Positions 2,504 to 39,255 of a stretch of DNA of 64,000 bases are shown here, piece after piece. The notes below the pieces were generated by a model that saw only the letters and a program-made list of their open reading frames with translations, searched no databases and was not told where the DNA came from. This stretch comes from Squalus acanthias. Taxonomy: Eukaryota. Each line of letters starts with the position of its first letter. Within the stretch, counting starts at the first letter, position 1. The stretch lies in contig CM059430.1 in the NCBI GenBank assembly GCA_030390025.1, positions 74,400,001 through 74,464,000 of the forward strand, read 5' to 3'. A program made the position numbers and the translations under genes.

Positions 2504-3143
2504 CTGGTGACAAAAAACTCAAAGTTGCTGGATATAATCGGCATAAAGCCTTACCATGCGGAATACCTTGCAGACGTGTGTGAATTGGTGACCGTAAGGC
2601 TCATTAAATTAAATATTCTTCCAAGCAATCGACCTGCTTTGTGGAAAGGAATTAATTTCAATTTGCAAACAACATAACAATAATAGCAAGGCAGGATTCC
2701 ATTAGTAACAGTTCCTCTTGGATTATCTCGAAATTGCTGCTGAAGTGGTGCTGCTTCGAAAGCTTGCCTTCTTGCTAAAACATATGGGGGTAGAAATTAG
2801 GTCGCGCCCCTTTTGGGGCGCAAATATCGTCCGAGCGCAAATATTAGCGCCTGGCGCTAATTATCAGCACTGACAGGAAACTTCACTTTTACCGCCCCGG
2901 GAGGTGAGTGGAGCGCTAAATTAGGCGCTGCACACCTCTCTTAAGGCGCAAAGGCCTAGGAGTGAGGCGCTACCTCAGCGCACGAGCGCAGCGCAGCTGC
3001 TGCCAGTTAGCGAGGGAACACAGACACACTGGCGCCGGACACTTCTTAAAGCGGGGGGGGCCACTTGCTCCCCAGCCACACCCTGCTCATTGCAGCCTTG
3101 AATCTCAGCCTGGAGAGACCTGTAATCCATTTTGCTGCCAAGC

Positions 3144-5143
3144 ATGGAGAGGGTGAGAGAACGCGCTCATCGCTTCACCGAGCGGGCCTTGGATGCTCTG
3201 GTTGGCGCAGTGGAGCGCAGACGATGCATGCTGTTCCCGGAGAGTGGCAGGAGGCCTTTGCCACGCGAGTTCAGAAGAGTGTGGAGGGAGGTGGCTCAGA
3301 GCGTCTCCTCCAGGAGCATGGTGCCCAGGACCCATGTTCAGTGCCACAAAAAATTCAACGACCTCACTCGGGTCGTCAGGGTGAGTGGCTTTTTCTCAAT
3401 ACCTCTCCATCCCTCCATCTCAACCTCACTATATGGCCAGAGGGTCTTAAAACCCCAATGCACAACACTCATGCAACACCTATGGCCCTTTCATCAAACA
3501 CACACACACATTCCACACTTTGCATACAGTAAGGGCTATTCACCTATGGGAGGCACATCAGGCAAGACCATGGCTGCATATTGTAAGGGCTATTCACCTA
3601 TGGGAGGCACATCAGGCAAGACCATGGCTGCATATTGTAAGAGCTATTCACCTATGGGAGGCACATCAGGCAAGACCATGGCTGCATATTGTAAGGGCTA
3701 TTCACCTATGGGAGGCACATCAGGCAAGACCATGGCTGTATATTTACTCAGATGCTGTCCTTTTTCTTGCAGGCTAAGCTGGCTCATAATCGGAGACAGC
3801 AGCAACGGACGGGTGGAGGGCGGCTTCAGCTGCAACCCCTCAGCGATCTGGAGGAGCGCGTCCACAGGATTGTGGCAAGCCGGGTGATCGGTCCCGTCGC
3901 CACTGGGGACGTCGACCCCGTTGTGGACAGCAATGGTAAGGTCATCACCTTTTTGTCCTCTGTCCTTCCACTTGTCCCTCACAATACCAGCCTTTGACAC
4001 TTTCAATCCAACTTGCTAACTCGCTGCACTTATTCCTCCCTTACTGCCACCCTGTCCTCACGCTAAAGCCACTCTTGTACCTCCCTGCTTTCAGATGGTG
4101 ATTCACCAGCTGAGGAGATGGTCCCTGAAGCTGCCACTGGGAGTGATGCTGCAGCTGAGGAGGAAGAGGAAGCCGGAGCATCAGTGCCACCCTCTCCCGA
4201 GGAAGCCCATGGCCACACTGGGAACACGCCTTCCCCGGAGGGGAGCAGGGGGGAAGGGGCTGATGATGGTGAAGCTCCAGGACCCAGCGGGCTGCAGCAA
4301 CGCCATGGGGGGGGGGGGAGGGAAGAACGGGAGCCTTCTCCCCAGAGGGAGAGTATGCCAGACACTCCTACTGCAATGGACGCAGAGGAGGAGCGGCTGA
4401 TTGCAGAAATGAACAGCCAGGCGGTGGGCATGCACACTGAGCTCATGGGTGCAGTGGGAAGGGTGCCCGAATGCATTGAGGCACTGGCAAGGAGTGTGGA
4501 GCACTTCGCTGTAGCACAGGCGGATGCCACACTAAAGCTTAGTGCTGCAATTCAGTCACTGGCTGCCAGGAACCCATCTGAGACTGCTCTCATGCAGACT
4601 CAGATTGAGGCCACGCGAGCACTGACTGCTGCCATCCTCGATGGTTCGTGCACATGTCCCCGGGGCTGTCACCGTGCCACAGCAGGCCAGCAATCTGTTC
4701 TCCGGCAAATTGCTCCGGATGCTGAAGTGCTGCCCCGTGGGAGTGCCAGTGTGTCGGGCGAGCAGGGAGTTGCTGTCCTCTCTCACGATGACAGCATTCC
4801 TGCTGCCAACACTGTCACTTCTCCACTGCACTTGCCACCGCCTGTAGGACAGACTGCTGCCGCCATGCAGAGTTGGTGCAGTCTGCAGCCGGGCCCTCCA
4901 GGCCCAGAAGTGGTCGAGGCCGTCCTTCAGGGGCATCTGCAGTGTCAGGGTCTGACGAGCAGCAGCCTTCCACCAGCCTTGCTGCAGCCACTGAGGTCCC
5001 ATTACGGAGGAGCAGTAGGGTTAGAAGGGGGGAAGTGCGCAAGGGAAGGAGATCACCCTCGAAGGGCAAAAAGTAGGAGGTGTGCCAAAATGCTGGTCAT
5101 TTTTTTATTAAAGGCCGAGGTTCATGGCCCAACTTTTGTTTAG
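3144..5143 (+). CDS. Harbinger Myb/SANT-like DNA-binding protein; spliced exons 3144-3380, 3773-3935, 4095-5143 (possible frameshift giving the basic C-terminus ending at 5076)
   Basis: Exon 1 MERVRERAHRFTERALDALV...WREVAQ...RTHVQCHKKFNDL is a Myb/SANT trihelix. GT-AG junctions with consistent phases (0, then 1) join it to AKLAHNRR...TGGG and to the acidic low-complexity ORF at 4118. Confidence 0.85.
3521..3742 (+). repeat. 54-bp tandem repeat, about 4 copies, in intron 1 of the Myb gene
   Basis: Unit gtaagggctattcacctatgggaggcacatcaggcaagaccatggctgcatatt starts at 3529, 3583, 3637 and 3691. Confidence 0.95.
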
Positions 5144-5370
5144 TGTTTTGGACATTATCTCCAGGTTGTGAGAACCAGTTATGTTATTGACTGTTTTTTT
5201 GTGTTTATTTCTATGAGTTTGTCATGAGGAATTGACACACACAGAGTTTGTACAATAAATAAGTTTCTGTGCTCAAATTATACATGGCTGGTGGTTGGAA
5301 TTATTGGTGCCTTGGCCGGCTTAGGGGTTGCGTGCTGGGTTGATTCGTGTTTGTAGCAATGGCAGGGGCC

Positions 5371-6531
5371 CTAGAAGCGGCTTGCTATTAGTCGTTGACG
5401 GACGGCCCTTGCAGTTTGACCATTGTGGGCCGCCCTCCTGCCTTGGTGCTGCTGATGATCATCGTCCTCGTCCTGTTCCTCCTCTTCCTCCTCCTCCTCT
5501 TGTGGTGCTGCAAGGCCTGGTGGCATTGGCTGCGTCCTGAGGATTGCCATGTTGTGCAACATGCAGCACACGACTACGAAGTTCGAAACTTGATCAGGCG
5601 AGTACTGCAGGGCTTCTCCGGAATGGTCCAGACAGCGGAATCGTTGTTTCAGCACGCCGATTGTGCGCTCAATAATGTTCCTGGTTGCTTGATGGCTTTC
5701 CTGGTACCGCAGCTCAGCAGGGGTGTTTGGCGCACGGAGTGGTGTCATCAGCCAGGTGCTCAATGCGTACCCCTTGTCCCCCAGAAGCCAACCAACTGGC
5801 TGATGCGGTGCCTCGAAAATTTCTGCCACAGTACTCTGGCGCAGGATGAAAGCATCGTGGCAGCTGCCCGGATAGTGGGCATTGACAGCGAGAATCACCT
5901 GTCTGTGGTCACAGACCAACTGCACATTCAAGGAATGGAACCCCTTTCTGTTCCTGAATTCCTCTGCATTCTCTCGCGGAGCACGCAAAGCCACATGCGT
6001 GCAGTCAATGGCGCCCTGCACCATGGGGAAGCCCGCTACCCTCGCAAAGCCCATAGCACGGTCATGCTGCTTGTCTGGGGTCATAGGGAAAGAGATGAAG
6101 TCTCGTCTCCTTCTGAAGAGGGCATTGGTGACCTGCCGGATGCAGTGATGCACCGCAAACTGGGAGATATTGGCGAGGTCCCCAACAGCAGCTTGGAATG
6201 AGCCAGTGGCGTAGAAGTTCAAAGCCACTGTGACCTTCACTGCCACCGACAGAGACGTCCTGGACCTCAGCTGAGGCTGCAGATCTGGCTGCAGCAGGTG
6301 GCAGAGCTCAGTGACCACCTCCTTGCTGAATCGCAGCCTTCGCAAACACAGCTCCTCGGACATATGGATGTAGGAGAGCTGTTCACGATATACCCTGGGA
6401 GGGTAAGCTCTCCTGTACATGCGCCTGATGGCCCTCCTCCGTCTGGCCATCATTGCCACTCTCTGTCTGCGTCTCACTATCCTCCGATTGAGCTGGAGCA
6501 GGACGACGCCCCCAATCATTGCAGCCCCCAT
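5371..6531 (-). CDS. Harbinger (HARBI1-like) DDE transposase, intact 386 aa
   Basis: Motifs GAIDCTHV, NRKGFHSLNVQLVCD, PGSCHDAFIL, LLGDKGY, IERTIGVLKQRFRCL; uninterrupted ORF. Confidence 0.95.
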   Translation of the reverse strand: MGAAMIGGVVLLQLNRRIVRRRQRVAMMARRRRAIRRMYRRAYPPRVYREQLSYIHMSEELCLRRLRFSKEVVTELCHLLQPDLQPQLRSRTSLSVAVKVTVALNFYATGSFQAAVGDLANISQFAVHHCIRQVTNALFRRRRDFISFPMTPDKQHDRAMGFARVAGFPMVQGAIDCTHVALRAPRENAEEFRNRKGFHSLNVQLVCDHRQVILAVNAHYPGSCHDAFILRQSTVAEIFEAPHQPVGWLLGDKGYALSTWLMTPLRAPNTPAELRYQESHQATRNIIERTIGVLKQRFRCLDHSGEALQYSPDQVSNFVVVCCMLHNMAILRTQPMPPGLAAPQEEEEEEEEQDEDDDHQQHQGRRAAHNGQTARAVRQRLIASRF

Positions 6532-7399
6532 ATTCTCTTTGCCAGAAAAGTAATGAGGTACAGCAACTAAAGTAGCAGCAAAGTTAGGATGAACTAGGCC
6601 AAACTACCTCACAAAGCGTTGAGTCAATGTAGAAGTCTCTCTCTCTCTCTCTCCGAATCTCTCTCTCTCTCTCAGAACGAGTGGTGCATAAATGTCGACC
6701 ACAGAAAAAGACAGGAAGAGGCCCCCTTTAAATAGCGCCCCCCCCAGCCCCACACCGATTGATAACGTTCCAGTCTTCCTGTCGTTGGAAGCGCCAGGCG
6801 GTAAGACAGGGGGCGCCACTCAATTTCCACTCCGGGGCGCCCCAAGGGCGTTGCACCATGGAATGACGTCACAATCTGCGCGCGCAGGTGGTCGCAGCGG
6901 TAAGTTTTAGCGCCGCCGCACAATCTCAAGTTAAGTTCTCGAGCGGCGCAAACAGCGCTGCGCCCGGGCGTTAGCGGCTTAACGCCCCATTAGCGCCCTC
7001 TTAAGGCGCTAACGGGAGGCGCAACCAACTGAATTTTCCCCCCATGGTGTCCCAGTCACACAGAACCGTCCATGTAGCTGACATTCTGATGCAAGGGCGT
7101 CTTCGGCAATGGTATTATCTACACAGATAAGTAATTGAAGGATCCCGATGTAATTGCTTTTTATCTACTTAAGACTATTATTCATGATACCGATACTGAC
7201 AGAGCCACATCAACAGTTTTTAACGTTGATAAGATACGTTAGTATAAGTATGACATGTCCAGGGAGTCAACTTTGCCCTGTATATTTGGATTACTTCGAA
7301 TCATGTGAATTGTTCCTCATATTTCAGAGAAAGATAGCCACAATAGATTAATGATAATGTGAGGCTTAAATTATCCTAATATTTACAGAAAAAAACAGT

Positions 7400-15200: not shown

Positions 15201-16725
15201 CAGTATAACACATTTAGCGTCACATCTGTAAACCGGAAACTTCAGTGGCCGTGGACTGTCATTTTCAAGAATAGTTCTGCACTGGCATTAATGCAATGAC
15301 ATTGAATGACTGTCTAATTTACTTCATATATAATTAACTTTAATAGAATTCAGTGAAAACTGGTGGATACTTCAGGTGTCTTTGCAAAATTTATTGGAAA
15401 ACTGGAACGTTCAACAAACAGTCCAGACATTTATTACAAGTTAACTACTACGTTTTTCGAATATCATCCAGTCACTTTGTGCTCAATCAATCATATGTAA
15501 ACCTTTGCAAAGTTAACCCTATTTGCAGCTATTTTACATACCTGGTTTAACATGCAATAATATAATGAAACACTAAATGGTTTTGAACCAGTTAATGAAA
15601 GTTTAGTATATTAATAACAATGAATCGAGTAATTAAATGGAGAAAAATTATTTGAACATTTTCTGTAAAATACTGAATAACTGGCTTAAAATTGATGTAG
15701 AATGGTGTATAAGTAACATAATTTTGTTGCATTACGCCGAAGATGGAAATCTACTGCTTCGTGCAAAGATGAGTAACTGGCTAACGTCTAATATATAAAA
15801 TTCTTATTGCGGGTTTAGCTATGCATGTTAATGATGGGATTTCATCACCAAAATTACAAATATAAGCAGCACTTTGGGATTTTGCAAACTTTCTTAGAAG
15901 GGTAGATCAATATATATTTGAGAAACTGTCCCTGATTATTCTTTAATTCAGTGCTAGCCGTTAAATATATATGGAAATGTTGGAATTCGCATCGTGTTAT
16001 TGTTTTTTCTCGCTCCTCAGGTCTTCTCTCCGAAACCAAGGTACTTCATTAAACAAATGACTGGCTTTCTGCAGTATATTCGAACTGAAGCACTCAATCA
16101 TATAATTGATTAATTCGTGATTCTACGTTTTTCTTCTGAGAACAAATGATTGTACACATTCTTGATCTAGGCAAGAGAGATACTGAACACAAAATAACCA
16201 GCACAGGATGAATATTAAACTCTTGATATAAGAACCTACACGTGCTTTCATACATTATGAGGCTATGTCAACCTTTTTACTAACATTCTGCAGGGACGGA
16301 GGAGTTTGGGAACTCTTGCCAGTGACTCGTCTATTATTCACTTTAGATTTCTACCTGCCTGGTTCATGTATATTGATTTATGTGGTCCCGAATGTGCAGC
16401 CATAAGAAGCATACCTCAAAATAATAATGGAGGGATATTACGCCTTAGTGTTTGTCAATTTTCAGAACACACAGTTGTCTCATATTAATCTCATTACAAA
16501 AAAATTAGTGCACGATTCAAAATGATAATGTTGCAGCAGGAAGTAAAGCTGATCCGGGACAGGAAATAAAAGTGTCAGATTTCTGGTGTTGAGCATTGCT
16601 GGAAGAATATATAGATGTATTTTTTATTTTGATGTTTATGTTTTCTTCATTTTGGTAGCAATATTTCTTCCCCTGCTCATCCTGATGGATACGCTATTAA
16701 TACGACACTTAGATGGGTGCACTTT

Positions 16726-16751
16726 CCGAGTACTTACGTGGCTCGGCCACG
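16726..16751 (-). ncRNA. R2 3' UTR H-type pseudoknot
   Basis: Minus strand CGTGG-CCGAG-CCACG-TAAGTA-CTCGG: two perfect 5-bp interlocked stems, followed by AAAG. Confidence 0.75.
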
Positions 16752-17463
16752 AGGTCACGTCCGGCGAAATGGCACAGCCAAGGGGGAGGCGAGGCGGGGG
16801 TAATTGGGTTTTAGGGTAGTATAGGCGGCTATGACTATATGTTTTTTCAAAAATGTTGGTCCTCAAAGTGTCACCAAGCTTTGGAATACACCTCCCTATT
16901 GGGAAATGCCGGGTCTATTGGCCGAACAGTTATTTGCAGTGTTTGCCTTATAGCCTGCCATCATTTGAAGCTTGCAATTCATTAACATTGCAGATGCGGC
17001 TAACACTTATTCTAACTTATACTATGCAGAATGAGACTATTGTATCTAAGTACTAATTCTAATATAATAACGACTTAAAGAAAATCCGTATTATGGTTTT
17101 AACTCCTTAGTTCCCGTTATAAGGCCATGCATTAAAGTGGCACTAATTAGGAGTCCATGAAAATTTGAAGCATTTTCCGTGTCAACAGTAATGTCAGTCT
17201 TGACGTTTCATTAGCGAAGGCTTTGTTTCGTTCAATTTTGAAGAACTTCTTCAGGGCGTTGCAAGTCTAAGTCTAGCCTTATATCTTCGATTACGAATGC
17301 AAAGAATTTTATATTGGATCCATTTGTCATCTCTTTAGTTACAAATTCCTGATGTTTATATGTGTCTTTCTTCTCGTCCCATGTCTTCTTCAGGGACATG
17401 TTATTATCCTCGTACCGTATCGTCACATCGACTACCGCGACATCATCACCATTCTGAAATATT

Positions 17464-18221
17464 GCCCGTATTTTCCGATCCCCACGGGTGTGTAGGAGGT
17501 GTGTACACACAGGTCGGGATCCCGGAAATGCAGGCTTCAGCCATGCGAAGCGCATGCGCTGAAAACCGGCATTTCCGATCTGTCAAGAATCCTCTTGACA
17601 GATCGGACGCCTGCCCTGGAGAAGGGATCTCTGCCCGTGGAAAGTTCCACTTTCTGCAGAACCTCCGCTCGCTGAAATCACTTAAAAATTTTACGCCTGT
17701 CAAAAGCAGGCGTACGGCCTGCTTTTAACAGCATAAGATTTTAAAAAAGGATAAAAAATATTTTTCCACTCATTTATAATTTTAAAATAGTTTAAAAAAG
17801 AGGTATGTTTATTTTTAGCCCCTAGAAAACTTTCATTACTTTTTTCAAAAGATTAAATATTTGTTTAAAATATTTAAATTAATGTAATTTTAACTCATTT
17901 TAAAAACGTCTTGGTTTTTTAATATTTATTTCAGGTTTTGCTTTATTTTTTTGTGATCCCCATTCATACTTTAAACAGGTCTATCTGTCAAAATTATGAC
18001 GAGGGATTTCCTTCTCCCATTGGCTCGCCTGGCCCACGTGTTCCCCGGGACGCTTGCGATCGGCATGCGGCCCTGGAATATATGGGCCCTGCGCATTTCG
18101 GCTGTGGAGAGGCCCAGGATTGGAAATGGCCGGTACTCGGGAATCTTCAGGTAAGGGCTTAGACTTTTCCCCGATAGGAGGCATCCGCACGCAGGAATCC
18201 TCCTGACGGAAATTACGGGCC
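17464..18221. mobile_element. Harbinger-like MITE, family 2, inserted in the R2 endonuclease
   Basis: Ends GCCCGTATTTTCC / GGAAATTACGGGCC; TSD ATT (17461-17463, 18222-18224); splits PDI|FQNGDD. Confidence 0.9.
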
Positions 18222-19741
18222 ATTATGTCGGGATTCCAAAGTTTGCCGTCTGAGAATTTGAGTGCGCGATCGATGTAGGCTGTCCAGTCAGATCTACTGA
18301 TCTTTTCCTTCAGCCTTTCGATAACCTTGTTGTGTCTCTTTATCTTTGCGTTCTTAACTGAGCGACAGCTTCCTGTTATATGGGATAGGTTTTCCTTGGC
18401 AGCACCGCAGTTCCTGCAGAGTTTTGTTGATGCGATCCTTCTGAGTGGAAGTGGCTATCTGGTGTGGTAGATATTGAATCTTAGTAGTAGAGCATTGATC
18501 AAGTTACATTGTTTCATTTTACTGTTTAAACTGAGCCAATTGTTTGAGATATTGTTGAGATATTGTTGTTAGGATAGCAAGCCAGTCCTGAGTCTTGGTA
18601 TTGGAGTTTTGCCCATTTTTCGAACTCCAAGCTTCTCCATTCTAAGTATTCGTTTATTTTGGTATTCCTTTTGCTTAGCCGGTCGTCGAGTACTATATGT
18701 TGTAGTAGTTCTGCTATGTCTGGTTCTAGATCTTCCGTTTCTGTACCGCTGTCCTCAGTGAATACTTTATTCGATTATCCTTCGTGCAGGTTTGCCTCTT
18801 TGAGTTCTTTAAGGTGTTTTCGTTTTTCGACGTTGCCTTTGTTGTTTGTTCCACAATACTTGAATGAGGCTCTTATGATAGGATCGTTTGACTTCTCCAA
18901 GACATCAAGTTTCCTTATTATCGACGATGGTATCTGCATTTCCAATTTGTGTAGGCTCAATCTCCCGTCTCTTGTTCTTCAGTAGAGTGTTCCGTCGGAG
19001 ATATCTTTGGTTAAGTGGAGAATTTCCTTGATAACATTTTTAATTATTCGGTCCAGAAAGTTAGTGTAATCTGTGATACCTCTGAGAGAATAAGATCGTA
19101 GTAGATTCTCGGTATCAGTTGTGTTTTTAAAATCACAATCATCTGAGTGGGTTTGAGTTCAATTTCTTTCAGATGGTGTACCGAATTTGAAAGTTTTTTC
19201 TGGCCACTTATCTTCAGTGACATCTGACCAGTGATCGATCTGAGCACGAAGATATTTTTCCATTGATCCTGGCGTTATGTAATCCAGTTATTTACTGTCT
19301 ATGGCCCCTTTCCTTCATTGGTTATATAGGAAAGTCTTGTTACTAGAATTCATTTCGAACCCAGCAGTGTTTTTACGTTAATTTCCAGTCCTGTTTTCTT
19401 GCAGAACGTCTCCAACATGGAAACGTTTTTGATGATCTCGGCGTGGGTGTCGCTAAATCGTGCGATGCAGTCAGCGATTGAAGTATTGTGCATTTCCTTG
19501 TACTGTTGTTATTTCCCATCCGTACGCCGGCACCATCCTTTGTAGTGAACATAGGAATGGGTCCAACGTTATGTTGAACAAAAGAGGAGAAAGAGAGTCG
19601 CCTTGTTTGATCCCTTTCTGATGATTATTGGACCTGTAATTTCCCTGTCTCCTTCGATAATCGTAGTTCCGGGGAACACGTTTTCAATCAGTTTAAAGAA
19701 CTGCTTGTTCAGCCCCATCCTGGCCAGACGTTCGATATCAA

Positions 19742-21100
19742 AATAAAAACAGAAAATGCTGGGGATATTCAGCAGGTAAGGCAGCATCTGTGAAGAGCGA
19801 AACAGTGTTAACGTTTCAGATCGATGACCTTTCGGCAGATCTGAAAAATAGCAGGAAATGGAACAGATTACTAGGCAAGTGAAGGAGCTGGGAAAGTGGG
19901 GAGGTGATGAAAGAACCAGAGGTATGGTCTGTGATAGGATATAAGGCCATGATGTGGAGATGCCGGCGTTGGACTAGGGTGGACAAAAATGAGAAGTCGC
20001 ACAACACCAGGTTATAGTCCAACAGATTTATTTAAAATGACTGCAGGATAAAATATAAGGTAGGAGAGGTTGAGAGACATTAAAATACATTAAGAGATAT
20101 TCAAGGCAAAAGGAGATGGTAAGGGGACAGGTTAAGAAACAAAAGATGGCTCTAGATGAAGACTGAATTGCGCTAGCAGACTGAAAGTTAGCTGCCATGT
20201 GGGAGAGAAGAAAATAAAACACAACCAAAAAAAGGTGTGGATAAAATCTATATATATAAGATAGGGGCCGAGGTTATGATCTAAAATTGTTGAACTCTAT
20301 TTGAATCCAGAAGGCTGTAAAGTGCCTAATCGAAAGATGAGTTGCTGTTCCTCGAGCTTACGTTGAGCTTCAGTGGAACAATGTAAGAGGCCAAGGATGG
20401 TGAGGTCTGAGTTGAGGTGGAGCGGACAATTGAAGTGACAGGCGAACGGAAGCTCAGGGTCCCCCTTACGAACAGCATGGAGGTGTTCCACAAAGTGGTC
20501 ACCCAATCTGCGTTTGCTCTCCCCAGTGTAGAGGAGTACGCATCGTGAGCAGCCTATACAGTATAATAAATTGCAAGAAGTACAAGTAAATCACTGTTTC
20601 ACCTAGAAAGGATGTTTGGGGCCCTGGACCGTGGGAAGGGGGGAGGTACAAGCGCATGTGTTGCATCTCCTTCTCATGCACGTGAAGATGCCGGGCGAAG
20701 GGGTAGGTGTGTTGGGGGTGATAGAGGAGTGGACCAGGGTGTCGCGGAGTGAGCGGTCCCTTCAGAATGCTGAAAGGGGAGGTGAGGGGAAGATGTGTTT
20801 GATGGTGAGATCACGCTGGACGTGGCAGAAATGGTGGAGAATGATCCGTTGAATGAGGAGGCTGGTGGGGTGAAAGATGAGGACAAGGGGAACCATATCG
20901 TGGTTCCGGGAGGGAGGGGCAGGTTGAGCACAGAATTTCGGGAGATAGAATGGACACGGTCAAGGGCCGTGTCAACCACAGTAGAGGGGAATCCTTGGTT
21001 GAGGAAAAAGGAAGACATGTCGGAACCACTGGTATGAAAGGTAACATCGTCAGAGCAGATACGGCGGAGACGGAGGAACTGGGATAATATCAATGTTAAT
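19742..21100 (-). mobile_element. Penelope-like element (GIY-YIG endonuclease region plus pLTR) inserted in the R2 RT
   Basis: ORF GDHFVEHLHAVRKGDPELPFACHFN...QRKLEEQQLIFRLGTLQPSG; SQFLRLRRICSDD; 11-bp TSD TTCGATATCAA (19731-19741, 21101-21111). Confidence 0.88.
19947..20052. mobile_element. Short Penelope pLTR-derived insertion nested in the Penelope element
   Basis: TSD ATATAAGG (19939-19946, 20053-20060); same sequence as part of 60548-60798. Confidence 0.7.
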
Positions 21101-22190
21101 TTCGATATCAATTTGTGAGCAACAGAGTCGAATGCCTTGGCCAGGTCCAGGAAAACCACAGCCAGTTATTTTCGGTTGGTCTCCGCTCTTTTTATAATGT
21201 TTTTGATTATGTCTATGTTCGACTGACCTCAAGTTGCTGCCGCTAAGAAGCCGTTGCGTCTGAGATTTAAGCTGATAGCTTAATCTTTATGTGATGATTT
21301 TGATAAACGTACGGAGCAGTATGTGGCCTATTGTTATTGTTCTCCAGTTATCTAAGCTTTTGAGGAGCTCTGGGTCTTCTGATTTATGGATAAGCAATGT
21401 GCCACGTTATTCACACTATCTGAAATGGTTTCTGGGGGAAGGCGTAATTAATTCTTTTCTCGTTCCTTTATTTAGCATTCTGTGCCATTCATGCTGGCTT
21501 AACCCACTGTGCGTGTTAAATGTCTTGTGACGAATTGTGCATTGATAATCTTCTGTTTGTTCGGACTCCGAACTCCTTTTATATTTCCTATAGTGGCAGG
21601 CGGTGGCATGGTAATCGCCTTTTTGTTACATTGAGGAAAATAGTTGATTAAGTTTGAAGAATTACATTCTATTTATTAAATGAACTAATTGCGTTAAACA
21701 TCGCTCTACAGGAAATGCTGAATCATATGTCTATTGGTGAGTGAATGTCAAGCTCGCTCTGATTCTTGTGATTATTTTTGGGTTCCATTCTAACCCTTTC
21801 GCAATAGGGAACATCTATTGTATTTATTAAATCCTCAATGTCGTGTATCTCACTATTGGTATTTCAATTCTGCTATACGGCGGAATTTTGAGGCCAGAAT
21901 TGTAAAACGTAACTCTAGGTCTGTAATTATCATTTTCTTCAGCTTTATTATCATTTCTATAACGACCGCAATTGGTATACTCTTGGGGACTAGAAATGGT
22001 CGTATAATGCGTTCCGCATTGGTGTATATATATGCGGATTTCAGTGCTTGTCTGGCAGGGGTAGAGCTCGCGAACTCGAAGCTTTTGCGCTTCATGTACA
22101 TTGTCGCTGGACGAATGGAGACAATGTCGGGGACAGTGTGCTCCCGGGCCTTGTTCCAATCGGAATGGTAACACTTGAGGGGTTGTCCGT

Positions 22191-22355
22191 GAGAGTTCAA
22201 AAGCAGTGGGAGCAGAGCGAGAGCGCCAAAACCCGGTAGAGTTCAAAAGCAGCGGGAGCAGAGCTGGAGCGCCAAAACCCGGGAGAGTTCAAAAGCAGCG
22301 GGAGCAGAGCGAGAGCGTCAAAACCCGGGAGAGTTGAAAAGCAGCCGGAGCAGGC
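22191..22355 (+). repeat. 46-bp tandem repeat, about 3.6 copies, in the CR1 5' UTR
   Basis: Unit gagagttcaaaagcagcgggagcagagcgagagcgccaaaacccgg at 22191, 22237, 22283 and 22329. Confidence 0.9.
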
Positions 22356-25300
22356 TGAGATGCAAAGGACCGGTGAATGTAAAGATGTAGAAAATAATCG
22401 TAGTGTGACGTCATGAGTAGTTCTCTATTTCTCGCTTTTTTTCCAAACTTGAGCGTCTAAATTTAAGTGCCTTGGTGTAGATTAAAAGGTATAAGTGTTC
22501 CAAATTTTAAAACTAATTACTTAATTGAGATGAGAGAACAGGCAATGTATTGTTGTTGTTGCATGTGGGAGCTCTTGGACAGAAGTGAGGGCCAGTAGTA
22601 CTACATCTGCAGCAAATGTTGGCTGCTCGAGGAACTTCGGCTCAGAATTATCGAGCTGGAGTCTGAGCTTCAGATCCTGCGACATATTAGGGAAGGGGTT
22701 CGTTACCTGGACACTACGTTCCAGGAGGCAGTCACACCCACTAGAATAATTACTTCCAAGTTGGCCCATGGTCTGGGACAGGAGGCTGTGACTACAAGCA
22801 AGGCACCTACCGGGATCCAGGAGGTAGTGGCAGAGGAGCCTCAGCCCTTGGCTTTGTCCAACATGTACGAAATTCTTGCTCCCTGTGTGGTCGAGGCCAG
22901 GGACTGCAGGGAGGATGAGCAAACTGACCACAGCACCGTGGTACAGGGAGCGATTCAAGTGGGGGTAGCAAAAAGAAATGTTGTAGTGATTGGGGACAGT
23001 ATAGTGAGGGGGATAGATACTGTTATCTGCAGCCGAGAGCGTAAGTCCCGAAGGCTGCGTTGCCTGATGGTGACAGAGTTAAGGAAATCTCCTCTGGGCT
23101 GGAGAGAAAATTGGAGTAGGAGGGGGAAGATCCAGTTTTCATGTTCCGTGTAGGTACCAATGACATAGGTAGGACAAAGAAAGAGATTCTGCTGAGAGAG
23201 TATGAGCAGCTAGGGCCGAAATTAAAAATCAGAACCACAAAGGTAATAACAGCTGGATTTCGACCTGTGCCACAAGCGAATTTGCATAGGTTAAATAAGA
23301 TCAGAGAAATGAACGAGTGGCTCACAGACTGATGTGGGAGAAATAGGTTTCGATTTGTGGGGGACTGGCACCAGTACTGGGATAAGAGGGAGTTGTACCA
23401 TTTGGACGGGCGTCACTTGAACCATGCTGGGGCTAGATTCCTGGCAAATCGAACAACTAGGGCTGTAGAGAGAGTCTTTAAACTAAATAGTGGGGGGGGG
23501 AGGATCCTGGTGAGCGGGAAAAGAAAAAGTCAATGTGAAATGAGAAAGCAACAGAGCAGGCTAGAGACGGGGGAAATAACAACCAGAGTGTGACAGGAAG
23601 GGACAGAATGTTTACAAATAAAGAGTGCAACAGAAACAAGACCAAAACAAGGAAAAATGGTAAAAAGACAAAGTTAAAAGCTCTATATCTGAATGCACGC
23701 AGCATTCGTAACAAGATAAATGAGTTGACGGCACAAATAGATACAAATGAGTTTGATCTTATCGCCATTACAAAGACGTGTTTGCAAGGTGACCAGGGCT
23801 GGGAACTGAATATTCCAGGTATATGATATTTCGGAAGAATAGAAAGAAAAGAAAGGGAGGTGGGGTGGCTTTGTTGGTATAAGATGGGAGCAGTGGTGAG
23901 AAGTCATATTGGCTCAGAAGATCAAGATGTAGAATCGGTTTGGGTGGAGCTAAAAAATAATAAAGGGAAAAAGTCTCTGGTGGGCGTAATCTACAGGCCC
24001 CCGAACAATAGCAATGCTGTTGGATAGAGTATACATCAACAAATAATGGAGGCCTGTAGAAGGTACGGTAATAATCATGGGTGATTTTAATCTGCATATT
24101 GATTGGACAAATCAAATTGGCCATTGTCGCCGAGAGGAGGAGTTTGTAACGGAATCAACCAGGAAGCAGGCTATCTTGGATCTGGTACTATGTAATGAGA
24201 GATAATTAATAAATAATCTCATAGCAAAGGATCCTCTACGAAAGAGTGATCATAGCATCGTTGAATTTCAAATTCAGTTGGAGGGTGAGAAAGTTGTATC
24301 CCAAACCAGTGTCCTGATCTTAAACAAAGGCAATTATAATATCATGAGGGCAGAACTGGCTAAAGTGAACTGGAAAACCAAATTAAAGGCTAAGAAAGTC
24401 GAAATGCAGTGGCAGACATTTAAGGAGATATTTCATAACTCTCAACAAAAATATAATGCACTGAGAAAGAAAGATTTTAAGAGAAGGGAGCACCATCCGT
24501 GGCTCACTAAGGAAGTTAACAATGGTATCAAATTGAAACCGAAGTCATGCAATGTTGCACAGATTGTTGGGAGTCCAGAGGATTGGGAAATGTTTAAAAT
24601 CCAGCAACGGATGACTAAAAAACTAATAAAGAGAGAGAAGTCGAATTATGAGAGTAAGCTGGCAAGAAACATTAAAACGGAGAGTAAGTTTTTCTACAGG
24701 TCTATAAAAAGGAAGAGGGTAGATAAAGTAAACGTTGGTCCCTTAGAGGATGAGACTGGGGAATTACTAATGGGGAACGGGGAAATGGCAGAGACTCTGA
24801 ACAAATATTTAGCATCTGTCTTCACTGCACAAGACACTAACAACATTCCAATAATGACTAATCAAGGGACCACAGGGAGAGGGGAACTAAAGACAATAAC
24901 TATCACTTTGGAAATAGTACTCGGTAAAATAATGGGACTAAAAGACGACAATCGCCTGGACCAGATGGCCTGCATCCCACGGTCTTAAAAGAAGTGGCTG
25001 CAGAGTTAGTCGATGCATTGTTTGCAATATACCAAAATTCCCTGGATTCTATGGAGTTCCCAGCGGATTGGAAGACCGCTAATGTAACACCTCTATTTAA
25101 GAAAGGAGGGAGACAGAAAGCAGAAAACTATCGACCAGTTAGCCTAACATCTCTCGTTGGGAAAATGCTGGAGTTCATCATTAATGAAGCAGTAGCAGGG
25201 CATTTAGAAAAACATACTGCAGTCAAACAGAATCAGCATGGTTTTAGGAAAGCGAAATCATGCTTGACAAATTTGCTGGATTTCTTTGAGGAGGTAACAC

Positions 25301-26520
25301 GCTGGGGTGGAAAAACACTGAGCCAGTGGCTGTGGTGTATTTGGATTTCCTGAAGGCATTCGATAAGGTGCCACGTCAAATTTTACTGCATAAGATAAGA
25401 GCTCACGGAGTTGTGGGCAATATATCAGCATGGATAGAGTATTGGCTCACTAAAATAATGCAGAGATTCGGGATAAATGAGTCATTTTCTGGTTGGCAAG
25501 CGGTAACTAGTCGGGTGCCGCAAGGCTCGATGCTGGGGCCCCAAATATTTGCAATCTACATTGATGACATGGATAAAGGGATCGAGGGTAATGTAGCCAA
25601 GTTTGCGGATGATACAAAGATCGGTGGGAAAGCAAGTTGTGCAGAGGACTCAAAGAGTATGCAAAGGGATATAGACAAGCTAGGTGAGTGGGCAAACATT
25701 TGGCAGATGGAGTATAATATGGGAAAGTGCGATGATATCCACTTTGGCAGGAAAAATAAAAAAGCCAACTATTTTATAAATGGAGAGAGATAACAACAAG
25801 CTACAATTCAGAGGGACCTGGGGGTCCTTGTGCATGAACTACAAACAGTTAGCATGCAGGCACAGCAATAATCAAAAAGGCAAATGAAATGTTGGCCTTT
25901 ATTTCAAGGGGGTTGGAATATAAAAACAGGGAAGTCCTGCTACAACTGTACAAGGTATTGGTGAGACCACTGCTGCGTACAGTTTTGGTCTCCTTATTTA
26001 AGGAAGGATATACTTGCATTGGAGGCAGTTCAGAGACAATTCACAAGGTTAATTCCAGAGATGAGGGGTTTGACTTATGAGGAAAGGTTGAGCAGGCTGG
26101 GCCTATACTATTTGGAATTTGGAAGAATGAGAGGTGATCTTAGCGAAACATATAAGATACTGAGGGGGCTTGACACGGTAGATGCAGAGAGGATGTTTCC
26201 CCTTATGGGGAAATCTAGATCTCGTTGGCTCAGTCTCAGGATAAAGGGTCGACCTTTTAGAACTGAGATGAGGAGGAACTTCTTCTCTCAGAGGATCGTA
26301 AATTTGTGTAATTCTCTGCCCAGAGAGCTGTGGAGGCTGAGTCATTAAATACATTTAAAGTGGAAATAGACAACTTTTTTCAAGATAAGAGAGTGAAGGG
26401 TTATGGGGAGAGGGCTAGGAAGTCGCTTTGAGCCCTAGATTAGCCATTTTCTTATTGAATGGCGGAGCAGGCTCGAGGGCCCAAAAGGCCCATTCCTGCT
26501 CTTATTTATTTTGCTCTTAT
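22191..26520 (+). mobile_element. Near full-length decayed CR1 LINE inserted in the R2 5' region
   Basis: ORF1 zinc finger/leucine zipper plus esterase (VVIGDSIVRG, VGTNDIG); ORF2 endonuclease (LYLNARSIRNK) and RT (VPQGSMLGP, KFADDTKIG); CR1 3' tail. Confidence 0.95.
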
Positions 26521-26579
26521 TTTCTAGAAAATGTGTTTCGCTCAGCCAGCAGGGAACTGGATCTCCACAGATCACCGTT

Positions 26580-26754
26580 ACTATTTTGATTTCTTTCAGC
26601 AGTCGTTTATCAAACACCGACGTATTGTTCCCAGTTGGACCGCGTGGCAATAGGACTCACTGTGATCGAGAAATCTGAAGGACCAAAGCTAATGTAACTA
26701 CCTTCCCAGGTACGGATTATTACCGCCCTTAAGTGAGTCATAGTTACTCCAGCC
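26580..26754 (-). ncRNA. Putative HDV-like self-cleaving ribozyme at the R2 5' end, including a 28-nt 28S rRNA-derived leader
   Basis: GGCTGGAGTAACTATGACTCACTTAAGG matches 26/28 to the 28S sequence upstream of the R2 site. Pairings GTAACTA/TAGTTAC, GCTGGA/TCCAAC and GACTCACT/AGTGAGTC; CTGGGAAC and GCTGA elements in HDV-like order. Confidence 0.65.
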
Positions 26755-27186
26755 ACTTCCTTCACTATACCCGCTGTGTGGCTCGAATTGGTCTATTTCC
26801 TTATGCGAAAACAGCATTGCCCTTCCTGATGTCATATCTGCCAGTAATAGACCCTTCTATGCGTCAAAGAAATTGGATGATCACGTTCGGTTGCAACGTA
26901 CTCTCAGCTCCTGGGCAATGACATAATTGCTGAAAATTCTTCTATAACCTGCGGTGGGTCATTCCCTCTTGTAGCAGCTGCCAATTCTCTGCCCCATCTA
27001 CTTGCGCCCAAAACACTATTTGTTTAAAGGCGGAAGACCGAACATTTTGGAGCAGATTAGCAGTCAGCGTTAGGGCCTACGCGCATGGTGAATGCACGTA
27101 CACTGCACTTCTCTTTATGTAATGTTGCACTGGAAATGCAAGTCACAATGGATCAACGAAGGCCTGGAGTCAGATGGAAAAATAAC

Positions 27187-27962
27187 GGCCCTGATTTTGT
27201 TGTGGTAATGACGGCGAAACTCTCAGCGTTCGCCGGCATTATTCCTCAGAAATTGACAGCAACTTCTGGAATCAGCGTATGCGCAATAAACGCTGAAATC
27301 GAGAAGTTGCTGTCAGTCATTACTTGCTCCTCGACAGTTTGCGCTGTGGAAATCCCAAGAGCGTGAAATCAATTCAACTCACAGTTCCTGGCGAAAACCT
27401 CCGCTATTACGCTGCAATATTGCTATTAACCATCCCCACCTTTACCCCACTACCCAAAAAATGTTAAGCCTTGATGAAAAAGTTGTAACTGGATTTTTAC
27501 CAGACTTTTGACTGCTGAACAACCGTTCCTTCCTGAAAAACTACATTTATACTTGTGGAATGCCTTTTTTTTCCATTAATATGATATGAATTACAAGAAT
27601 TTTCACTTACTATATTTTCAAAGTGTTTGTTAATGATATTTCAGCTATTACTTTCATCCTCGTTGCAGTTGACAATCTTCATTGTTCACTCTTTAAAATG
27701 TATATATAGTAAGTTAGAATCTGTGCATTTTACTTCCTGGTTTGGTGTCTGTGAGAATTCTTCAATCTGATTGGCTGCTAAGCCTGCTTGATGCCATCAC
27801 TGTTGCTGGACGCCGGAGATACGTTTGATTTGGCGCCAGATTCAAACAACAGTCTGGAAAACAGAAATTCACGCCACAAAGATCGGTAGAAATTTGTGGG
27901 CAGCTTTTTTCGAGGTCAGCGGTGAGTGCTGTCACTTCGGCGCTGACCGCAAATTCCAGGCC
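27187..27962. mobile_element. Older Harbinger-like MITE, family 3
   Basis: Ends GGCCCTGATTTT / AAATTCCAGGCC; GC-rich arms around an AT-rich core; TSD not clear. Confidence 0.6.
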
Positions 27963-35300: not shown

Positions 35301-36599
35301 GAATTTTAATGTTACGTTCACGTTGATGACGTTGTGCAAACATAATTGCAGCCATTAAATTCAATGATAGAGATCTAGAACTCCACGAATAGGGTTTAGC
35401 AATCTGCAGCTACGAACCTTCTAAGTTTTAAGCACGATCTAATATTTGAGTTGACGCAAGATGTATGTTTGAAAATATTTTATCATCAACCCGTCAGTCA
35501 GATTGTGCCATTCAGCAGCTCCGCACGCAAAGATGTTATCAGTAATCAGTACTTTTAGCCTATACCTACGTGCAAGGTATTTGTTTCAGTATCAATAATA
35601 CCATTCACTTCTAATTTAGATAACGTGTTATAATGTACTGTCAGAAAGTCAATGATCAAGAAGGTGGTGAGTTCATACCTTTGGATGTAATGAATGGAAG
35701 TCCCTTCACAGTCATAATGGTCAACGGTATAATTATCACCGCACCCCCGCTACATCCTGCGATCAGATCAACACTGATTTGAGAGACAAACTCCATCAGA
35801 TTGTGATAAAATCAAAATTAGAAACTGTGGAATGTAAAACGGATATACAGAGGTTTAAATGTCTTAAATATATTTCCAAAGATACTCCTATAAGAATAAA
35901 ACAACGTGCATAAAGACTCACTAGATCGATTTCTTTATCTCTGTATTCAGGAGATATGTATGAAAACGTAAACAAATAGTTTGAAACACCCAGTAGTTTG
36001 GATAAATAGCAGCAATGCGAAATAAGAGGAAGAAAACCAAACCGAATGCTCGTGTTATACTTGACGAGATAAAGCGCATTGGATAAGAATTGATTACATG
36101 TCGCAAAATGGAGATTCGTTTTGGGTGTTTTCTCTGATCAGTATACAGCACAACCACTGAAAGACGAAATATTACAAATTCGTTCGAGATTCTCTTTGCA
36201 GCCAATCTTCAGCAAGGCTTTTTACAACTTTGCACAAAGGCGAACAAATTAATTATTATTCCATATTTTGTATAGTGTCGAGGGAGCCGCACTGTGCATC
36301 TGATGATGCCTGGACTGAAATTGGACTGCTTGGTGGCTGCAGAATGTGAAGGTCTTCAATTACCAACTCCACCCCTCCACTCCACACAAACTTTTCTGGT
36401 TTCTCGCATCAAAGCTCACCGTGCTCCCACTTCGTGAGCTTGCAATGTTATGACAGTTAGTCTGAATTATGTAAGCAATGCTCAGAACTGGTTTCCACTA
36501 TTAGCTAAATTGCTTACGTCCAACTTAATTCTCATCTGATTGAAATAACCAACATGCGATGGAATCTCGATTAAAGTACCATGTGAGTTATACTATTAC

Positions 36600-36905
36600 C
36601 TTCGTTAGCAACGGTGCAGCTGGCATTAGCTGGAATTGAGTTAGAAACGTGATGTACTTGACAGGTGTAAATTGTGCCGCGCACGATTGGCTGTGTGTCC
36701 TCTAAGGAGCTGATAACTTCATACAAAGCCTCTGTCTTTGCGTGTTGTTCATTTCTAAATCCAGTCAGGATTGTGGTACCATTTTTATGCCAGGTGAGGT
36801 TAAAGTTTTTCGGGTAAAAAGCAGCCGTTCTGCACTGGAGTCTCAGAGAAACGGATGAAGCCCCTTCGGATGGTACGGATACAATTATCAGGTGAGCGGG
36901 GGAAG
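36600..36905 (-). pseudogene. C1-set Ig domain exon of the receptor pseudogene
   Basis: CxxxxFYP, W and YTCQVHH motifs; 306 nt, phase 1-1; donor G|gtaata. Confidence 0.9.
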
Positions 36906-37164
36906 CAAAATGGTAAAGAACGTAATTCAGATAAAGCAAAACATCTGACCTGTATTCTATCAACTCTTTGATTTCATAAAATGACAAACTGCTCATTCGG
37001 GGCATCATAGTTGTATTGATAATCATTAAGCATCCTGGAGCACCATCTAAGCATTCGTTCACTGTAGCTAGATTTTCCTCCCACACGGAATTGACATATT
37101 AACGGTATATTAATAAAATTGATTTATAGCATTGGATCTTTTTTTGTTAATACTACTGTTGTTA

Positions 37165-37906
37165 ATATTAATATTTTCCAATCGGAGTCTTCCTGCGTGC
37201 GGAGGCCTCCGATCTGGAAACAATTTACGCCCTTACAAGAGGGCTCCAGAGAACGGCCATTTCCGCTCCTGGGCCTCAGCTCAACGAAATACGCAGGGTA
37301 CAGGTATCCCAGGGGCGCATGCGGTTCACAAGCGTCCCTGGGATCATGTGGGCAATGGGGAAGCAATGAAAGAAGGGAATCTCCCTTCATTCTTTTGACA
37401 GCTTTGACCTTTCAAAAGTATGAATGGAGATCAATCCAAAAATACATCAAAACATTAAATACATTTTCAAAAATCACTTTTTTAAATTATTTAAAATTTC
37501 ATTAAATTCAGTGTTTTAAACAGAAATTTAATTCTTTGAAAAATATATTAAATATTTTTACGGGTGTAGAAATAAAATTACTTTTTAAAAATTATATTTT
37601 AATTATAAATGAGTGAAGAATAAAAAAAAAATCTTCTGCTGGTGAAAGCATGCATTACCCCTGCTTTTACCAGGCTTAAGATTTTTAATTGATTTCAGCG
37701 AGCGGGGGTTCTGCAGAAAGCGGAATGCTCCACCCGCAGAGGCACTACTCCAGGGCAGGCGTGCGATCTGTCAGGAGGATTTTCGACTGATCCAAAATAC
37801 CGGTTTTGTGCGCAGGCTCTTGGAATGCCTGAAACCTGCACTTGGGAGGTCACTACGGCTGTGTACACAGATCGTACACACACGCAGGGATCGGAAAGTA
37901 CGTGCC
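37165..37906. mobile_element. Harbinger-like MITE, family 2 (decayed), in the receptor V-C1 intron
   Basis: Similar to 11167-11907; right end GATCGGAAAGTACGTGCC. Confidence 0.75.
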
Positions 37907-39255
37907 ATTCTGTTCCAATCGCAATGATGCGCTTAATTGTTGCCAGAGTACACTACAGGTTCTGTTGCTACACCGAGAAAATGTCCTCTTCTGGACAGCA
38001 ACGAACGAGTTCGGACATTGTTCTTGTGTACAACACTTTCTTTATCCTATGGTTTTCGCCAATTCCACCGTCCGGCCGTTCAGGAATTGTATCTGGAACG
38101 CAGAGTATGGAAGCGCCGTCTAAAAGACGGTAATAGGAATCGTGCTCTTATAATTAGATAAAGGACATTTCAAAGTGTTTAATATTGCGAATCAGCGCAA
38201 GATTGTTCATCCTGCCACTTAGTGCTTGAAGTTAAATCTTGTTTTATTTCACAGCATTGAATTAAATTTCCTCGACAAACAGAGAATCAAATAATAACTG
38301 CTGATATATGTCAATTTTCGCGTTTTGCAGAGACGCTGGAACTGTAATCTTTCCATATTGTTGAACACATGTCGTTATAATCAAATAGAAAGCTGTACTA
38401 TTTTATACAGAATGCATTTCTGTATTGAACGCCTTTGTTAAACGCAGTTTGAAAAGCGGCAGCAACTAAACACTTCACGTTTCAAATTGCAGTCACAATT
38501 ACCATATACAACAAGTTGTACACCAGTTCTAAATTGCAACTGTTTGAAGCTTATGTTTTGCTGTTGAGTAATACGTTCCGGCGTCCGGGATAGTTACATT
38601 CAGGAGGTGAAGGTAGGCGCCGCCTCTCTTTACACTGAACAATGTTCTGCTGTCTTCTTGCAGGAAAGTTATATTACCATCTCTCCACCAGTAAACATTT
38701 ACGCTTGAATGATCGAGATCATCGGGGAAATAACGTCAGAAAGTAACGTTTGTGCCTCTGAACGCCTTCCTTTGTCTAATATCAGGAGACAGCTTGCCCG
38801 AAGTGTGCATAGCAACTACCAACAAAATATGCACATTCTGGTTCAATCATTCATATATAAGGAAGCTGATTTGCACAACCAAAATAACATCGTGCGACCA
38901 GTCCTTTGATACATTAGTAATTCAATGAACCTAAATATCAGAATTATTTTCCAGTTATTGAATGTGTTTTCTCATGGAATTATCATAAATGACATTACCT
39001 TTCTCATCCAGATATGTCCTTCTGGCAAGGAACACATTACATTAAAACAATTCAGCAAATTAAAACAGTAAATACAATACCAGTTTGCACATCAACTATA
39101 AGATCGACTTCATGTGCTGTGTCAGGAACAGTTCATATATAACAAATAATAAAAGTGTACCTGGATACAAAATTCCCAGGAAACACATTCCCCAAAGTGA
39201 CCAATTCATAACCATATCGGCAAAGAAATAAGGGTAGATCATCCGTTGTGACTTA

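Follow-up and report, generated by a model that had tools for sequence, protein, structure and literature searches.

A dead and incomplete R2 retrotransposon copy outside the ribosomal DNA of Squalus acanthias, whose 5′ end likely marks a predicted ribozyme cut

The window analysed here is a stretch of 64 kb from the genome (3.7 Gb) of the shark Squalus acanthias, C6:74400001-74464000. Its minus strand carries a copy of an R2-clade retrotransposon which lies outside the ribosomal DNA (rDNA), is dead and incomplete, and is interrupted by three later insertions. An initial annotation, made from the letters of this stretch alone, had described it as an end-to-end R2 with a leader derived from the 28S ribosomal RNA gene. 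The parts of the element, in window coordinates and from its 5′ end, are the following.

26727..26754, minus strand: 28-nucleotide (nt) leader, 28S positions −28 to −1 before the R2 nick (26/28 match)
26601..26754, minus strand: decayed fold resembling the hepatitis delta virus (HDV) ribozyme (predicted)
26638-26633, and 26657-26652 with 26606-26601, minus strand: P1 partner, and helix P2, of the ribozyme (predicted)
26521..26600, minus strand: remaining R2 5′ region ahead of the CR1 insertion (from paralogue comparison)
22191..26520, plus strand: CR1-type long interspersed element, opposite in orientation to R2 (RVT_1 E 4e-19; in paralogue D, not in A)
21435..22190, minus strand: N-terminal region of R2; its zinc fingers are decayed, the first one degraded, the CCHC and CCHH remnants still clear
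21427..21434, minus strand: junction of a deletion of ~890 nt (Myb domain, linker and start of the reverse transcriptase, RT), also in paralogue D, not in A or C
21112..21426, minus strand: first surviving motifs of the R2 RT
19742..21111, no strand assigned: Penelope-like insertion with an 11-nt target duplication (no Pfam match)
18225..19741, minus strand: R2 RT with broken active-site motif, thumb, CCHC knuckle and start of the restriction-like endonuclease (RLE)
17464..18224, no strand assigned: miniature inverted-repeat transposable element (MITE) bounded by terminal inverted repeats, with 3 nt duplicated, within the RLE active-site motif
17147..17463, minus strand: remainder of the RLE, up to the stop
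16697..17146, minus strand: 3′ untranslated region (UTR), its 3′ end set within about 2 nt by other copies

We take the insertion at 22191..26520 to be a CR1 and, from its GIY-YIG-like frame, that at 19742..21111 to be a Penelope element. Splicing out 22191-26520, 19742-21111 and 17464-18224 leaves 3597 nt, and paralogues without these insertions have the sequence restored at the same limits, which confirms the boundaries first proposed. A public contig of 1426 nt also connects 17460 directly to 18222, at the position of the MITE. The zinc-finger remnants, RT, CCHC knuckle and RLE pieces listed in the initial annotation are present, and the stop codon, TAA, ends at 17147 as it stated. A Pfam scan recognised neither the broken R2 pieces nor the Penelope-like frame. 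When the R2 fragments are compared with solved proteins, R2 structures come out on top, with E values of 1.3e-10 and 1.7e-4 for two fragments and only 1.3 for the third.

The minus strand from 26754 to 26727 is identical to positions −28 to −1 of the genome's own 28S at 26 of 28 nt (E 6e-8); all 28 positions are retained, the last four included. Neither flank resembles 28S over 1.5 kb on each side (best E 1.9), and an Rfam scan of the window gave no match at E ≤ 1. The leader and the non-ribosomal flanks thus stand as first described. The copy departs from the canonical, 28S-specific placement of R2, with rDNA on both sides, and its insertion site is neither 28S nor a fixed CR1 site used by other R2 copies of this genome (see below).

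Four R2 copies lie within 150 kb, and all have both flanks in common: paralogue A (74376163-74386177), paralogue B, which is the window copy, paralogue C (from 74466815, its 5′ end deleted) and paralogue D (74502476-74520736). They represent one old insertion which was duplicated four times with a SIRP-like gene unit. The tandem units are mostly 83–87% alike, while B and D are 90–97% alike over the R2-bearing part and have the deletion and all three insertions in common. An empty paralogous site had been expected beyond the end of the window; copy C, 2.8 kb on, holds the same R2 (82–83% identity), and all four units are filled. A search for an empty site with the upstream flank matched, beyond a common repeat, only the four units. 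Among the 15 of 356 joints listed for public contigs over 15700-27400, in an output swamped by repeats, none skips the whole element. No target duplication is visible at the window site. No RNA dataset was listed as carrying the element, a result that points in neither direction. A hydrophobic frame runs across the flanks; it is disrupted in the paralogues, and a Pfam scan of one side gave no match. At the 3′ junction, a contig of 188 nt from another organism (run X7) covers 16609-16796 with 8 differences; as a single record of low depth, it hints that the insertion is shared.

Each unit contains a V-C1-transmembrane immunoglobulin (Ig) gene; the relatives of this gene bear SIRP-like or NCR3LG1-like names. 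The gene near the R2 copy is:

35659..38828, minus strand: SIRP-like Ig gene (V exon 38828-38532, C1 exon 36909-36601, transmembrane exon 35793-35659)

This gene has an in-frame stop in its V exon. The R2 is intergenic, on the 3′ side of the gene: in the window unit 8.9 kb separate it from the transmembrane exon, and in units C and D about 5 kb separate it from the last exon. The initial annotation placed the element inside an immune-receptor cluster; SIRP-like Ig genes adjoin it, and it lies between genes. The tandem units with genes of this type measure about 40–50 kb; a tail exon with tyrosine motifs was not detected in the window gene, whereas three neighbouring units have it. The closest named relatives of both the R2 and the Ig proteins are from sharks and rays. 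Elsewhere in the window, a Harbinger-type DNA transposon (3126-6603) has an open transposase frame of 409 amino acids (DDE_Tnp_4, E 1e-38).

The window copy is a fossil without sign of function. Aligned over 710 positions with a near-intact relative, C86, it has 52% amino-acid identity, about 9 frameshifts and 7 stops; its RT active-site motif is broken and the MITE sits in its RLE motif, so that the open frame and the intact RT and RLE motifs of a working R2 are all missing. The initial annotation's description as end-to-end fails for this copy, since ~890 nt near 21430 (Myb domain, linker and RT start) are deleted. The Myb region is retained in paralogues A and C, which reach across reference residues 2-1074; the insertion as a whole therefore has the one-frame R2 layout (zinc fingers, Myb, RT, CCHC knuckle, RLE), and the inserted RNA was probably full length. 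The proposal that a complete processed RNA had integrated thus probably survives for the original insertion, and not for the window copy itself. We considered whether the window copy is one of the short internally deleted elements (SIDEs) known for R2 and rejected this, because its deletion arose after insertion: it is found only in B and D, which arose by DNA duplication. The 3′ UTR, said at first to be structured, folds as a whole with z = −1.08, and 16 of 100 shuffles fold equally well, which gives that description no support; its conservation among copies is visible only in the last ~100 nt.

The 5′ ends of the shark copies fit an HDV-like double pseudoknot, in which P1 begins at the first base of the element and the leader is predicted to form a P1 strand. 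Helix names and the catalytic position are those which we presume from HDV ribozyme anatomy. The structure was drawn from the same related sequences on which it was scored, namely 16 aligned 5′ ends with 36 pairs and 558 cells: 90.9% of the cells are paired, compared to 30–47% in slid controls. Nine of the 36 pairs change on both sides, a level reached by 4 of 500 shuffles.

The position of the 5′ boundary was read at other loci. A leader pattern that itself selects for −28 gave 37 genome matches (control, 0). Thirty loci were read, 18 with 28S upstream and 12 without, and all 12 of the latter start at −28. A second pattern begins at −21 and hence does not select for −28; it gave 35 matches, 13 of them in rows that lie outside 28S units, and of these 9 have their start at −28, 3 start later and 1 is longer. 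When all loci read are pooled and evident duplicates merged (further 5′-truncated copies being left uncounted), 22 off-rDNA events have a readable leader: 17 start at −28, 4 at −26 to −24, and 1 is longer. Inside 28S, some copies bear tandem repeats of the same 28 nt. Passages of PMC3774820 give −28 as the commonest R2 cleavage site and such 28-nt repeats as its trace, and a section of PMC11331408 predicts a cut at −28 for an R2 from birds and finds that end-joining produces the 5′ junctions that lack annealing. Because 17 of 22 off-rDNA events start at −28 and the leader pairs as P1, the −28 boundary likely marks the predicted ribozyme cut, as had been supposed initially.

The RT tree has 40 rows, C75 being left out, and was built by a quick IQ-TREE run with Shimodaira–Hasegawa-like approximate likelihood ratio tests (SH-aLRT) and CR1 as the only outgroup. 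It is restricted to reference residues 366-790, since the alignments of C10, C6:71M and C75 were spurious beyond the true matches. All four copies are nested within a cartilaginous-fish clade (SH-aLRT 95–99) that includes C38, a 5′-truncated copy exactly at the 28S site, while turtle R2 and the bird and fish relatives branch outside it. This supports the R2 identity given at first and would place the RT among known R2s, in a tree that holds no labelled NeSL, HERO or R4 rows. The C86 copy (L085:4919-9115) is an end-to-end R2 outside rDNA which starts at −28; it has an open frame of 1075 amino acids, with one frameshift at the last of three zinc fingers, and the best solved match of its protein is turtle R2 (E 4e-193). 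Related copies at C13, C6, C8 and C14 have 85–94% protein identity to it. The closest independent DNA relative of the window element, C4:80647966-80655348 (L036-L037; 73%), also starts at −28 and matches only in the 5′ 286 nt and two 3′ pieces, with other insertions between.

The event is less rare than the initial annotation implied, as other R2 copies of this genome also lie outside rDNA. The R2 endonuclease region has 134 genome matches, several per locus. Thirty coding loci were read: 6 end in 28S, 14 at one CR1 site (L175-L201), 6 end at other places or are cut, and the remaining 4 lack a 3′ end. The fixed CR1 site is in the 3′ part of the CR1 repeat, mimics the 28S nick site, and is used by both coding copies and non-coding ones (L145, L146, L148-L150, L153); empty, it has at least 6835 exact copies (L202). 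The same flank variants occur at six of the 14 coding loci, and a single insertion that was duplicated may account for these six. On its upstream side, one empty copy matches 28S in register at 20 of 55 positions, most of them close to the nick. An upstream likeness of the CR1 site to 28S was rejected; the shifted 6-nt match was found post hoc.

A non-coding family derived from R2 (41 matches; L005-L013, L055-L083, L124-L153), 1.1–1.7 kb long and SIDE-like, combines an R2 ribozyme with an R2 3′ end and occurs both at the exact 28S site and outside rDNA. Among 30 loci read, 10 have their end in 28S, 2 have lost it, 1 has 28S on the upstream side alone, and 17 end outside rDNA; in 15 of these 17, some of which are duplicates, the 3′ end is followed by TAG, as in the 28S target. 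The form resident in 28S has three ribozyme-like units in tandem, with old leaders inside. Off-rDNA non-coding copies at C2 (L103) and C13 (L168, L169) have target duplications which by eye measure about 70 and 60 nt, and these sites resemble the 28S nick site. The genome also contains dispersed, decayed 28S copies (92–97% identity to 28S) with R2-derived inserts.

In a quick tree of 39 rows, the target tracks the lineage. One clade, a sister lineage of the window copies, is mostly in 28S (5 of 7 rows), a second mostly at the CR1 site (14 of 18 rows, with one 28S member), and in a third, of 5 rows, no copy is shown in 28S, 3 rows being without a 3′ end. The window copies fall together with C75, outside 28S. 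Three independent insertions of their lineage are known here (the C6 cluster, C4 and C75), all of them at places other than 28S.

We consider it very probable that the window copy descends from an R2 RNA which cut itself at −28 and was inserted outside rDNA, and that this insertion was duplicated four times and then decayed. The R2 identity, the leader and its fit to the fold, the non-ribosomal flanks, the flanks shared by four paralogues and the order of the damage are read from the DNA; what we infer from them is that the RNA cut itself, that the insertion went through RNA and that the 5′ end was attached by end-joining. An HDV-like ribozyme in the R2 RNA would cut 28 nt upstream of the usual 28S site, and the R2 protein would nick a loosely matching site outside rDNA. 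Target-primed reverse transcription likely copied the RNA to its very end, consistent with the full span in A and C. The 5′ end would then be joined without homology, and the leader would stay visible because outside rDNA there is nothing for it to anneal to. The insertion was later duplicated with the SIRP-like unit, and mutations, the deletion and the three insertions disrupted it.

Several observations weigh against this reading or restrict it. In the window copy the predicted catalytic C is replaced by A (26610), while paralogues A and D retain it, and P1 contains mismatched positions; cleavage is therefore deduced from relatives. The controls of the fold are lenient, since the structure was drawn from the same, related sequences. 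One event (C27, with three duplicates) has 103 nt of additional 28S. The RT tree is quick, has CR1 as its sole outgroup and gives the window lineage a long stem (0.54). Without an empty site, the target and any duplication are unreadable. Finally, the 3′ end of the window copy is followed by TAGC, that of each of the other three paralogues by CAGC, and the window TAGC is probably a later change. TAGC as a carried 28S remnant was rejected as unproven, given CAGC in three of four paralogues. At C27 (L091:6040-6290; L087, L089), the ribozyme 5′ end is inverted relative to the adjacent R2 body, and the event may be a 5′ inversion derived from a co-transcript that was left uncut; frames of retroviral type occur close by.

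The parent may itself have belonged to a lineage free of rDNA, with the 28 nt fixed in its own ribozyme, read-through from a host promoter and the same cut; we regard this as a real possibility that falls somewhat short of an even chance. The boundary would still be the cut and would be silent on a 28S co-transcript, so that this proposal refines the self-cleavage reading and does not conflict with it. The absence of the window lineage's three independent insertions from 28S favours it, as does the other lineage, the one with none of 5 copies shown in 28S (3 of them without a readable 3′ end), which has the 1075-amino-acid open frame outside rDNA. Independent copies also have non-28S letters at −4 to −1 in common, but such changes are inherited by rDNA-resident R2s too (passages of PMC3774820), and the window leader keeps all its positions up to −1. 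Moreover, old rDNA copies turn over, and rDNA-resident parents are under-sampled because rDNA units are scarce in the assembly (of 30 loci read, 5 were empty sites). The leader of the window event may have come fresh from a 28S co-transcript or have been inherited from an off-rDNA parent; the end is the same either way.

Alternatively, a piece of an R2-bearing rDNA unit could have moved as DNA, its rDNA flanks being later decayed or lost. In favour of this, the insertion is old, and the genome contains the dispersed, decayed 28S copies with R2-derived inserts described above. However, the leader is still 26/28 identical while the adjoining 1.5 kb on each side have no 28S likeness, and breaks in DNA would not recur at a single base in 17 events. 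The flank has 7 nt in common with upstream 28S, a weak similarity (equalled by 77 of 3000 random 40-mers) that is 10 nt out of register. The recurrence of the −28 boundary largely refutes this explanation, which we hold to be very improbable. It is hardly credible at all that the element belongs to another clade with a restriction-like endonuclease (NeSL, HERO, R4) and acquired 28S sequence: labelled members of these clades are absent from the trees, but the element has the identity given above to C86, itself closest to turtle R2 among solved proteins, and it nests with a 28S-inserted copy while the named turtle R2 and several fish and bird relatives fall outside.

Beyond the self-cleavage reading, it is possible, though rather doubtful, that shark R2 lineages left rDNA with the leader as a built-in ribozyme arm, that one of them was retargeted to CR1, and that the window copy is an early fossil of this departure. 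If true, R2 has in the CR1-site lineage naturally switched to another retrotransposon as its target. The processed 5′ end cannot be seen inside rDNA but is revealed by off-rDNA insertions, which therefore trace, in a living germ line, where the ribozyme is predicted to cut. Such insertions also tell what R2 tolerates away from its proper target, here mostly TAG directly after the nick. R2 proteins are in development as gene-insertion tools and are prized for their 28S specificity (parts of PMC13580325 and PMC12222951). For the question of what sets this specificity, it would therefore be useful to have, as a natural comparison, a vertebrate lineage whose target has shifted to a second and highly repeated one. 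Earlier publications already describe shark R2s, non-specific R2 families and cleavage at −28. Reviews mention R2 retargeting, via Fell et al. 2025 (extracts of PMC13580325 and PMC13586686); passages of PMC13343379 have nothing on R2 in CR1, and we found no literature, supplements not covered, on shark R2 dispersed outside rDNA or targeting CR1. To this, the window copy adds a dead off-rDNA member, and the CR1-site lineage is the main lead.

The turtle R2 (PDB 9nl2) and the zebra finch R2Tg (PDB 9dou) have the same domain order and resemble the shark element in RT and RLE sequence, and the same holds for other shark R2s (R2Sqj, in passages of PMC5035012; Chondrichthyes R2s, in passages of PMC13188248). 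Unlike vertebrate A-lineage R2s, the window copy is outside 28S, dead and internally deleted, and its own lineage was not found in 28S. The ZoAl R2 of a sparrow likewise has an HDV-like 5′ fold predicted to cut at −28 (section of PMC11331408). The −28 ribozymes of earwig, jewel wasp, silkmoth and TriCasA form the same P1 from 28S position −28 and have 28-nt repeats (parts of PMC3774820 and PMC11331408). In contrast to these insect ribozymes, the putative shark cut site is read from natural non-rDNA insertions, and cleavage is predicted. The TAG that follows shark 3′ ends agrees with the off-targets of engineered R2Tg, which match 4–5 nt downstream (extract of PMC12222951). The 1.1–1.7 kb non-coding family is comparable to the non-autonomous R2 SIDEs of Drosophila (passages of PMC3414825) and occurs both in 28S and outside. 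The non-specific families R2NS-1_SMed and R2NS-1_CSi of two flatworms, as described in passages of PMC5035012, are, like the shark copies, R2-clade elements outside rDNA; the shark copies differ from them in that their 3′ ends prefer TAG, one lineage reuses a CR1 site, and the 28S leader is kept.

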